Assembly (NCBI GenBank): GCA_016699795.1
Contig: CP065011.1
Location: forward strand, 226,474 to 290,473
DNA length: 64,000 nucleotides
Direction of reading: 5' to 3'
Source of the DNA: Candidatus Moraniibacteriota bacterium
GTDB taxonomy: Bacteria; Patescibacteriota; Minisyncoccia; Moranbacterales; GCA-2747515
Within the stretch, counting starts at the first letter, position 1. Each line of letters opens with the position of its first letter. A model generated the notes under the pieces. The model made no database searches, was not told the origin of the DNA, and saw nothing but the letters and a program-made list of their open reading frames with translations. Positions 9,485 to 9,900 of the stretch are shown here, one piece after another. Made by a program: the position numbers and the translations under genes.

Positions 9485-9560
9485 TGGTAGCGCTAAGGGG
9501 AATCGAACCCCTGTTGCCAGGATGAAAACCTGATGTCCTAACCACTAGACGATAGCGCCA
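9485..9560 (-). tRNA. tRNA-Glu (anticodon TTC) with encoded CCA
   Basis: Reverse complement GGCGCTATCGTCTAGTGGTTAGGACATCAGGTTTTCATCCTGGCAACAGGGGTTCGATTCCCCTTAGCGCTACCA forms a cloverleaf with anticodon loop TTTTCAT. Confidence 0.85.
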
Positions 9561-9564
9561 TATA

Positions 9565-9816
9565 TTATATATCACTTTCTATTCTTTCTATTATCTCCCG
9601 TTTTTTATATGAATTATTTTTTAATTCATATTCTCTTTTTCGTGCCTGAGTTTTTGTATTATAAGCTTCATAGTAAACAAGCTCAATTGGAATTTTACTT
9701 TTTAAAGAACGTGTCTTCCCTTGATTATGATCCTTTATTCTCTGTCTAAGATCCTGTGTGTATCCAATATAGTAATATCGCTGACTTTTGCTTTTCAAGA
9801 TATATACATAAAACAT
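9565..9816 (-). CDS. GIY-YIG nuclease family protein (83 aa)
   Basis: N-terminal YVYILKS...YYIGYTQDLRQRIKDHNQG, then ...YYEAYNTKTQARKREYELK, matches the GIY-YIG motifs. Confidence 0.75.
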   Translation of the reverse strand: MFYVYILKSKSQRYYYIGYTQDLRQRIKDHNQGKTRSLKSKIPIELVYYEAYNTKTQARKREYELKNNSYKKREIIERIESDI

Positions 9817-9864
9817 ATACTCCTTATTAGGATGTCACCCAAAGGGTGATCAATCTTTGATTGA

Positions 9865-9900
9865 AAAACCTGATGTCCTAACCACTAGACGATAGCGCCA
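9865..9900 (-). repeat. duplicated 5' half of tRNA-Glu (36 nt, identical to 9525-9560); tRNA fragment
   Basis: aaaacctgatgtcctaaccactagacgatagcgcca appears twice, flanking the GIY-YIG gene. The second copy has no T-arm or acceptor 3' strand. Confidence 0.75.

Follow-up and report, generated by a model that had tools for sequence, protein, structure and literature searches.

A free-standing GIY-YIG nuclease cassette that probably splits tRNA genes and restores them by duplication in bacteria of the candidate phyla radiation

A 64,000-nt stretch of the genome of Candidatus Moraniibacteriota, a bacterium of the candidate phyla radiation (CPR), was analysed (contig CP065011.1, positions 226,474 to 290,473 of the forward strand; this whole stretch is called the window below and positions are counted from its first nucleotide). 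It carries an intact tRNA-Glu gene that is preceded, on the minus strand, by a short open reading frame (ORF) encoding a GIY-YIG nuclease, by a double hairpin and by a second copy of the tRNA 5' half. We regard it as probable, with moderate confidence, that this arrangement is a free-standing cassette of an Slx1-like, homing-type nuclease, which divides a tRNA gene and makes it whole again through a duplicated part. The evidence comprises the anatomy of the locus, its recurrence in other genomes, covariation in the hairpins, presence and absence of the ORF at a syntenic site, tandem and decayed copies of the unit and co-variation of protein clades with the tRNA that is occupied. No prior description of a tRNA-nested GIY-YIG/double-hairpin element was found in the full-text literature searched, many subscription papers being outside this coverage.

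In the order of the minus strand, the locus consists of the following parts:

9942-9969, minus strand: sigma-70-like promoter, TTGATT-16 nt-TATGAT, whose hexamers align with those of the ORF-less relative L091 (retrieved loci are cited by L numbers throughout)
9865-9899, minus strand: second, displaced 5' portion of tRNA-Glu, nt 1-35 (9865-9900 and 9525-9560 agree in 36/36 positions)
9835-9864, no strand: double-hairpin module of 30 nt, inserted exactly between tRNA nt 35 and 36
9830-9834, minus strand: CATCC, where the tRNA sequence goes on (nt 36-40) before the copy breaks off; read from the sequence
9820-9825, minus strand: Shine-Dalgarno sequence AAGGAG, separated by 3 nt from the ATG (9814-9816); read from the sequence
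9565-9816, minus strand: 83-aa stand-alone GIY-YIG ORF of the Slx1/UPF0213 type (Pfam, PDB, AlphaFold2 model)
9485-9559, minus strand: intact tRNA-Glu(UUC) (ARAGORN and Rfam, 64.6 bits)
9525-9864, minus strand: predicted inserted unit of 340 bp, with double hairpin, CATCC, Shine-Dalgarno sequence, ORF and tRNA nt 1-35
9461-9473, no strand: terminator of the ORF-tRNA transcript, a GC-rich hairpin with a T-run, read from the sequence

Central to this anatomy is an exact direct repeat. Nucleotides 9525-9560 recur at 9865-9900 with 36 of 36 positions identical, as had been pointed out in a preliminary description of this DNA, and cover tRNA nt -1 to 35; by our own arithmetic, the chance expectation of a 36-nt exact repeat in 64 kb is about 4e-13. 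The displaced copy spans the acceptor 5' strand, the D-arm, the 5' strand of the anticodon stem and the loop up to anticodon position 35, and the sequence bears out the earlier statement that no T-arm follows it. The junction of the repeat between 9525 and 9524, which had been suspected to lie within the anticodon loop, indeed falls between anticodon positions 35 and 36. The intact tRNA-Glu begins 5 nt past the stop codon of the ORF; its presence had been recognised correctly, but its extent had been given as 9485-9560 and is 9485-9559, base 9560 being position -1. The 83-aa GIY-YIG gene beside it was recovered at 9565-9816 (minus strand; PF01541, E=7.6e-17), and the two small adjacent hairpins seen next to the copy were found at 9835-9864, where both are predicted to fold as RNA and as DNA. 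Overlooked before was that the copy continues as this 30-nt double hairpin and then as tRNA nt 36-40 (CATCC). On the minus strand the hairpins read TCAATC-AAA-GATTGA and then TCACCC-TTT-GGGTGA, with perfect 6-bp stems, 3-nt loops and 0 nt between them. Two perfect 6-bp hairpins lie side by side only once in the window, whereas 20 shuffles gave ~0.15 such pairs on average, and the window has exactly one GIY-YIG gene; no further tRNA-Glu fragment of more than 13 nt was found in the 64 kb.

The predicted size of the inserted unit is based on the spacing of the repeats (340), on tandem units of 337 and 345 bp elsewhere and on hairpin spacings of 322-350 bp in metagenomic loci. Nucleotides 1-35 of the intact tRNA (9525-9559) would then be a replacement 5' half that came with the element. 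The unit has dprA, topA and the gene of a zinc-ribbon repeat protein as neighbours, and the terminator at 9461-9473, being palindromic, could act in both directions. Two further observations concern the transcript. Inside the GIY-YIG ORF, at 9658-9686 (minus strand) and ~100 nt upstream of the intact tRNA, there is a strong promoter-like site (TTGAGC-17 nt-TATAAT, 10/12), which could drive the tRNA independently of the ORF or could be a chance match in AT-rich DNA. In the predicted RNA fold of the leader (9817-9899, minus strand), AUCCUAA after the hairpins pairs with UUAGGAC in the D-arm of the displaced fragment; CATCCTA(A) directly follows the hairpins in several relatives too.

The closest relative found (L091/L092) shares the promoter and the dprA-topA context, with a DprA that is 64% identical, and lacks the ORF. 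Its tRNA-Glu, identical to that of the window in 75/75 positions, directly follows the promoter. By our own count, the distance from the -10 box to tRNA +1 is 42 nt in the window, measured to the displaced fragment, and 42 nt in L091; therefore, the upstream fragment of the window occupies the original tRNA position, which upholds the earlier proposal that the original 5' half was displaced. In keeping with the alignment of the hexamers, the sigma-70-like promoter at 9942-9969 is that of the original tRNA-Glu gene, with the displaced 5' fragment, the ORF and the tRNA now lying downstream of it. In L091, 25 nt after the tRNA, CATCAGGTTTT is found, followed by the identical 30-nt hairpin module and by a decayed tRNA 3' part. 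Compared with the window, the hairpin of L091 is identical in 30/30 positions, the leader in 65/109 and the following 37 nt in 20/37. The preliminary description had looked to the tRNA-Glu loci of relatives for alleles without the insert: an ORF-less syntenic allele does exist, but it carries this hairpin relic and is not virgin.

Further copies of the unit were found in several states. L053 and L074 have two tandem units of 5' fragment, hairpins and ORF, 337 and 345 bp long, before one intact tRNA, with hairpin modules that differ in L053 and are identical in L074. These tandems look like the predicted unit inserted twice between nt 35 and 36, and they lend weight to the mini-element of about 340 bp with a GIY-YIG gene in the anticodon loop that had been postulated for the window. 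In L078 the duplicated segment takes in ~52 nt upstream of tRNA +1; therefore, the duplication was a DNA-level event and not a copy of the mature tRNA, and on this ground we rejected the idea that the duplicate arose through an RNA intermediate from mature tRNA. The opposite polarity, in which an intact tRNA is followed by the ORF (where present) and then by a 3' fragment with hairpin, occurs in L055 and L136. Composite loci (L017, L035, L126, L150 and L153) consist of an outer 5' fragment, hairpin, ORF, complete inner tRNA, spacer and a hairpin-bearing outer 3' fragment; this fuller form of several relatives carries a whole tRNA and has the hairpin at both junctions. The acceptor stem of the outer pieces in L017 and L035 is GGCCCGT/ACGGGCT, whereas that of the inner tRNA-Glu is GCCGCCA/TGGCGGT; here the cassette evidently brought its own tRNA. 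The inner acceptor stem differs from the outer fragments also in L026, L034, L077, L101, L109 and L153, where the inner tRNA may likewise have arrived with the ORF; no donor/recipient pair was seen among these eight loci. Deletions between the direct repeats of a composite would give the window form and the L091 form.

Decay is seen as well. Only 17 codons of the ORF are left in L130 and L170, and L107, L143, L157, L166 and L136 are ORF-less relics; intact, truncated and ORF-less copies together read as a spectrum of invasion, decay and loss. Arrays of spacer plus hairpin-bearing 3' fragment lie downstream of some tRNAs (L007, L028, L054, L062 and L068). In L013, from a Moranbacteria metagenome-assembled genome (MAG; 2750-3100), the tRNA-Glu after the GIY-YIG ORF stops at nt 53 and its 3' end comes only after a terminator hairpin and an element of the X type described below; the close relative L011 has an intact tRNA, and L013 is either a dead locus or an assembly variant.

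Homologous loci were retrieved with a 12-sequence protein alignment, and 80 genome loci from CPR classes, Bacteroidota, Elusimicrobia and other MAGs were examined. A tRNA gene on the same strand begins 3-32 nt after the stop codon of the ORF in 59 of the 80; it is mostly tRNA-Glu, with tRNA-Ser(GGA), -Asp or -Asn beside more distant homologues. At least 37 of these 59 tRNA-adjacent loci have, upstream of the ORF, a copy of the tRNA 5' part, two hairpins and a short resumption of the tRNA, and most of the loci that failed this simple copy test were found on inspection to have the hairpins together with a 5' fragment of a different tRNA-Glu variant. Under relaxed detection, a double hairpin lies within 200 nt upstream of the ORF in 50/54 loci, compared with 1 positive among control stretches taken 1.1-1.3 kb upstream. 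The resumed stretch matches the local tRNA in the relatives and varies in length from 4 to 19 nt. CPR homologues with 63-64% identity are arranged in the same way, although the surrounding genes are unrelated and another isoacceptor can be occupied: L001 is flanked by a gene for a murE-type ligase on one side and for a beta-helix protein on the other and has a tRNA-Glu(CUC), and L008 has a VanW-domain gene on one side and a tRNA-Glu(UUC). L041 and L079 belong to one assembly, in which different tRNAs are occupied by different paralogues. In total, the same design was found in well over a hundred independent assemblies of CPR and Bacteroidota, which rules out the assembly artefact that the preliminary description had kept in view. 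Ten carriers are labelled as Bacteroidota (L030, L031, L036, L037, L042, L045-L047, L053 and L061); in the tree, the nucleases of these loci fall between CPR sequences, with 55-60% identity, and the placement points either to cross-phylum transfer or to contamination or mislabelling of the MAGs. Several MAG titles with 'Gammaproteobacteria' and 'Bdellovibrionales' look doubtful, too.

The hairpin module was analysed in a set that contained every insert between GGTTYT and CATYC, irrespective of pairing, and that comprised 30 distinct 30-nt inserts. The two-hairpin structure is paired in 98.9% of cells, with changes on both sides at 8 of the 12 stem pairs; the observed covariation score was reached by 0/500 shuffles, and sliding the partners destroys the pairing. 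G.U pairs and mismatches are equally rare, with 4 cells each of 360. In many modules the loop of one hairpin is complementary to that of the other, as in AAA/TTT of the window, TAC/GTA or TAAC/GTTA (L065, L033, L011 and the window), and the module of 30-32 nt is nearly palindromic as a whole, perfectly so in L065. These features give a faint hint of a DNA-level structure that would be needed on both strands. As a side observation, triloops of the type GNA are frequent in the second hairpin and those of the type TNC in the first. A metagenome scan for the hairpin-in-anticodon-loop pattern, which ignored the ORF, gave 87 stretches, and 91 hairpin sites are present in the 80 loci retrieved. A GIY-YIG ORF directly follows 57 of these sites, precedes 17 within 250 nt and lies within 1 kb of 5, so that 79/91 are near an ORF; 10 have none and 2 are cut by contig ends. 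The modules are confined to GIY-YIG/tRNA loci, and 2.9 million viral contigs gave 0 matches to the hairpin-in-tRNA-Glu pattern. The double hairpin, which had been noted before as a neighbour of the copy, is thus, with its covariation, a structure under selection and an integral part of the element and not incidental. That hairpins are optional late colonisers of dead fragments is unlikely, since no hairpin-free 5' fragment was seen and 50/54 loci carry the module.

The 83-aa protein matches PF01541 with 61.8 bits (cut-off 22.6; E=7.6e-17) over residues 1-71. In 40 homologues, Y4, Y15, G17, R25 and E61 are invariant and H29 and N30 nearly so; the catalytic-type residues among them, namely the tyrosines of the GIY and YIG motifs, the arginine and the metal-binding glutamate, are equivalent to Y6/Y17/R27/E75 of I-TevI. 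Sequence matches in the PDB were 1zg2 (BH0048, E=8.5e-10) and 1ywl (EF2693, E=2.4e-5), both UPF0213 proteins. The AlphaFold2 model (pLDDT 91) is a single compact beta-beta-alpha-alpha-beta-alpha-alpha domain. In Foldseek it was best superposed on the Slx1 nuclease domain (7cq3_A; query TM-score (TMq) 0.68, root-mean-square deviation 1.6 A, 72 columns, E=0.065), and the catalytic domain of I-TevI (1ln0) followed with a TMq of 0.48 and E=0.49; the lowest E-value, 1.7e-3, belonged to BH0048 (1zg2, 40% identical), and no match reached E<=0.001. By sequence and by superposition of the model, the closest relatives are UPF0213 proteins and the Slx1 nuclease domain; homing enzymes, UvrC and restriction enzymes are more distant. 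Purifying selection acts on the ORF, with 20 synonymous vs 1 non-synonymous codon changes between L011 and L013. In a neighbour-joining tree the proteins linked to tRNA-Ser(GGA) form one clade, and protein clades track tRNA identity. No specific NCBIfam family was found for the ORF, and a look-up of the exact protein sequence gave no entry. COG4123, which is presumably the TrmN6/YfiC tRNA m6A37 methyltransferase family, enters here as a fusion partner. Proteins like that of the window have been placed in an Slx1 cluster in which fusions to a TrmH-type tRNA methyltransferase and to COG4123 occur (Dunin-Horkawicz et al., PMC1564403). Eukaryotic Slx1 is a structure-selective nuclease of branched or hairpin DNA (PMC6902002).

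The insertion positions follow a pattern. The dominant site of the hairpin is between nt 35 and 36 of tRNA-Glu (GGTTTT-CATCC); the anticodon-loop site of tRNA-Ser(GGA) is 34-35, T-loop sites are at 56-57 (GGTTC-GATTCC), and other modules lie in the D-region and near nt 8-12. In the anticodon loop and the T-loop, the sites adjoin the middle nucleotide, where they would be expected if a DNA hairpin were cleaved at its apex; the D-region sites fit this less well. Two or three modules are present in some dead fragments (L019, L028, L032, L068 and L086). The first tRNA base after the hairpin is sometimes altered in displaced 3' fragments (C36 to A in L017, 2853-2900; G57 to A in L028, 2887-2930), which may mark imprecise formation of the junction.

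From these observations we propose the following course of events, in which cleavage by the nuclease, the site of cleavage, copying by repair, mobility and the role of the hairpins are deduced from sequence comparison. The bare 83-aa nuclease would break the tRNA-Glu gene at or near the apex of the hairpin that encodes the anticodon loop (35-36), and the break would be repaired by recombination with an occupied copy. Repair would copy in the cassette, that is the double hairpin, a few tRNA nucleotides, Shine-Dalgarno sequence and ORF, and a new copy of the tRNA 5' part; a cassette of the fuller form would bring a whole tRNA and then a second hairpin-bearing fragment. The old 5' half would remain behind the original promoter, dead and with its former loop plugged by the double hairpin, and the new 5' half would join the 3' half, so that the essential tRNA stays intact. 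The ORF would be transcribed from the tRNA promoter, with an mRNA whose 3' end is set by the RNase P cut that releases the tRNA. Since an intact tRNA has to be preserved, the locus would never be immune and could be hit again, and repeated hits would explain the tandem units and tRNA-fragment arrays of the relatives.

Like a free-standing homing gene, the ORF lies outside any intron or intein, is present or absent at a syntenic locus and forms a decay series. Several points speak against a homing-type cassette. Characterised GIY-YIG homing enzymes such as I-TevI and the Seg proteins have a separate DNA-binding domain and a long recognition site, and the Seg proteins, with their DNA-binding modules, have ~200 aa or more; the protein of the window has no separate DNA-binding domain, the Pfam domain taking up residues 1-71 of its 83 aa, and the source of its target specificity is unexplained. 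Cleavage of DNA by the protein and the position of the cut are predictions. Next to the ORF, the intact tRNA offers the presumed target without protection, whereas a classical homing enzyme should spare its own allele. The ORF-less syntenic allele retains a hairpin relic, and no virgin site was seen beside a filled one. Extra assumptions are needed for the modules found at D- and T-loop positions and for the fact that modules occur on either side of the ORF. The fusions of Slx1-like proteins to TrmH-type methyltransferase and COG4123 leave a role at the RNA level open (PMC1564403), and nearly all data come from MAGs and metagenome contigs.

A bolder proposal is put forward tentatively: the element may be a new kind of prokaryotic mobile DNA, guided by shape and not by sequence, in which a bare Slx1-like nuclease of ~80-90 aa recognises hairpin-forming tRNA-gene DNA as well as its own covarying double-hairpin ends. 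If so, ~340 bp would make it, to our knowledge, the smallest autonomous mobile DNA element described. Somewhat less likely still is that the element behaves like a hairpin-ended transposon and not by classical homing, with a nuclease that reads hairpin ends and tRNA-gene hairpins by DNA shape, cuts at their base and is cut- or copy-and-pasted into hairpin apexes. The protein being a bare Slx1-like domain agrees with this, as do the hairpin modules at both junctions of L017, L035, L126, L150 and L153, their pseudo-palindromic nature and their occurrence in either orientation (L032), and the hairpin that is conserved 30/30 even in the ORF-less relic. The scarcity of G.U pairs (4 vs 4 mismatches of 360 cells) fits a structure that each of the two DNA strands has to form, and the insertions flank the central loop nucleotide (anticodon 34-35 or 35-36, T-loop 56-57). 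A simple transposon, however, does not predict the tRNA-derived stretches inside the hairpins in swapped order, units of the window type have the hairpin at one end only, and some D-region sites lie off the loop apexes. Also, we know of no GIY-YIG nuclease that has been shown to catalyse strand transfer.

With lower probability, the nuclease serves the host, as a tRNA-linked housekeeping or quality-control enzyme that works on tRNA or on tRNA genes under transcription and is co-transcribed with tRNA-Glu, fragments and hairpins being by-products of damage and repair. The strong purifying selection on the ORF, its very tight spacing to the tRNA across phyla and the fusions of Slx1-like proteins to a TrmH-type tRNA methyltransferase and COG4123 (PMC1564403) would suit such a function. 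It is contradicted by the absence of the ORF at the syntenic locus of the closest relative, by truncated ORFs, ORF-less relics and tandem units, by one assembly with different paralogues at different tRNAs (L041, L079) and by the unrelated gene neighbourhoods; moreover, activity on RNA leaves the precise DNA insertions unexplained.

An explanation at the RNA level, by which the tRNA is split or contains an intron (group I, archaeal bulge-helix-bulge or trans-splicing) and the hairpins are removed from the RNA, is very improbable. The insert does lie in the anticodon loop, as bacterial group I tRNA introns and archaeal introns do, and nt 1-35 joined to nt 36-76 would formally give the same tRNA. 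However, in 9000-10100 Rfam matched, on both strands and at E<=10, nothing other than tRNA, so that a group I intron or another known RNA family was rejected, and ~48 nt of non-coding, non-tRNA sequence are far too short for a group I ribozyme core. The hairpins are self-contained and form no helix with the exons as a bulge-helix-bulge would, and the covariation supports exactly these two. An intact tRNA follows the ORF in all 59 tRNA-adjacent genome loci and is present in most loci of the hairpin scan, no solitary complete hairpin-bearing tRNA was found in either set, and displaced parts decay. By inspection, no conserved core of a hammerhead-type three-way-junction ribozyme was found.

A trivial cause such as an assembly artefact, a chance repeat or an integrase att-site scar has a negligible probability and is effectively refuted by the comparative data: short repeats beside tRNA genes are common integrase scars and repeats can mislead assemblers, but well over 100 independent assemblies share the architecture, a repeat of this length has a negligible chance expectation, only 340 bp are enclosed by the repeat, which is the tRNA 5' part and not its 3' end, and there is no integrase among the neighbours, which are dprA, topA and the zinc-ribbon repeat protein gene. 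Three other candidates were rejected: an integrase island, since there is no recombinase, the sole ORF of the unit is the GIY-YIG nuclease and the repeat is the tRNA 5' part; a phage origin, since tblastn gave 7 weak matches only in 50,697 phage records, no PHROG family was found and viral contigs had 0 matches to the hairpin pattern; and a defence system, since PADLOC matches were marginal only (E=2.8e-4).

Among known systems, the nearest precedent in the bacterial world is SegB of phage T4, a GIY-YIG gene that lies outside introns and among tRNA genes (PMC2330249). SegB is described there as a site-specific endonuclease needed for the preferred inheritance of the T4 tRNA gene region, and homing enzymes as transferring their own gene plus flanking sequence (PMC2330249). 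In contrast to the window locus, SegB belongs to a phage setting without target duplication, hairpin module or restored gene, and the window protein is a bare 83-aa domain. The mobile GIY-YIG ORF in the mitochondrial atp6 of Allomyces macrogynus (Paquin and Lang) is said to have inserted with a replacement piece of the gene, the resident piece being displaced. There, too, the target gene stays functional and a displaced pseudo-fragment remains, but the setting is a eukaryotic organelle with a protein-coding target, and no sequence relationship is expected. Integrase islands and prophages likewise target tRNA genes, restore them with the partial tRNA copy of the insert and leave a partial copy at the other end; unlike the window unit with its 340 bp, its 5' part (either part in relatives) and a nuclease only, they duplicate the 3' end, measure kilobases and have a gene for a tyrosine or serine recombinase. 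Bacterial group I introns in the anticodon loops of tRNA genes share the insertion position and, in some cases, an endonuclease ORF in the insert, whereas the window has no ribozyme (no Rfam match) and function is restored by DNA duplication and not by splicing.

Two adjacent hairpins are also present in mitochondrial genomes such as those with the mobile atp6 ORF. The double-hairpin elements (DHEs) of fungal mitochondria are short, GC-rich, possibly mobile and highly conserved between species (PMC10085805). The resemblance is one of form only: DHEs are dispersed in intergenic regions and rRNA genes, and the bacterial module lies exactly at the disrupted tRNA junction. Direct homologues of the protein, with the same single-domain size, are the stand-alone UPF0213/Slx1-like proteins (1zg2, 1ywl), which have no established function and were not reported as tRNA-linked or mobile in the papers examined. 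Eukaryotic Slx1 differs by an extra RING finger and by its need for Slx4.

If the cassette is mobile, a very small and widespread selfish element joins the short list of mobile DNA in CPR bacteria, whose genomes are tiny and for which every insertion is costly. It would represent an intron-free way to colonise an essential single-copy RNA gene, by duplicating a part of the gene instead of splicing. A bare GIY-YIG domain may find its target without a DNA-binding domain, possibly by structure, which is of interest for nuclease engineering, and the UPF0213/Slx1-like family, for which no established function was found and two structures were solved in 2005, would gain a testable function. Were recognition indeed guided by shape, this would be the first biological role for the widespread UPF0213 family, with an essential target that is kept alive by a carried spare tRNA part or a whole tRNA. 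For annotation, 30-nt hairpin inserts in tRNA fragments, tandem fragment arrays and contig breaks at tRNA-Glu should be regarded as possible footprints of the element, and element-borne tRNA-Glu genes may move between lineages and phyla.

A second repeat lies next to the locus. The ~86-nt repeat, termed X, is present in the window at 9345-9432 and 6204-6289 (both plus strand; 92% identical) and also in L011, L013, L015, L064, L069, L084 and L094. One of the window copies faces tRNA-Glu convergently from the other side of the terminator. In the sense of the tRNA, X starts with an inverted T-arm of the local tRNA, which in the window amounts to a perfect inverted repeat of 13 nt; ~110-120 nt after X, the relatives have the tRNA 3' end once more, in direct orientation, together with a second terminator, and the pieces flanking X track the local tRNA (Glu, Ser or Asp). 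An inverted T-arm ~50-60 nt downstream of the tRNA was found in 4/45 genome loci and 6/49 metagenome loci. X, which had no match in Rfam or ARAGORN, may be a second split-and-restore insertion, here in the T-loop, or a small convergent RNA gene. The ~215 nt between X and the next gene (9128-9344) contain no real-looking ORF of more than 40 aa and no Rfam match, but near 9305-9322 a weak, decayed resemblance to the tRNA-Glu 3' end. The downstream neighbour of the tRNA/X region (7505-9127, minus strand) encodes a 540-aa protein with at least 5 DUF4379 treble-clef zinc-finger repeats and stretches of CapR homology.

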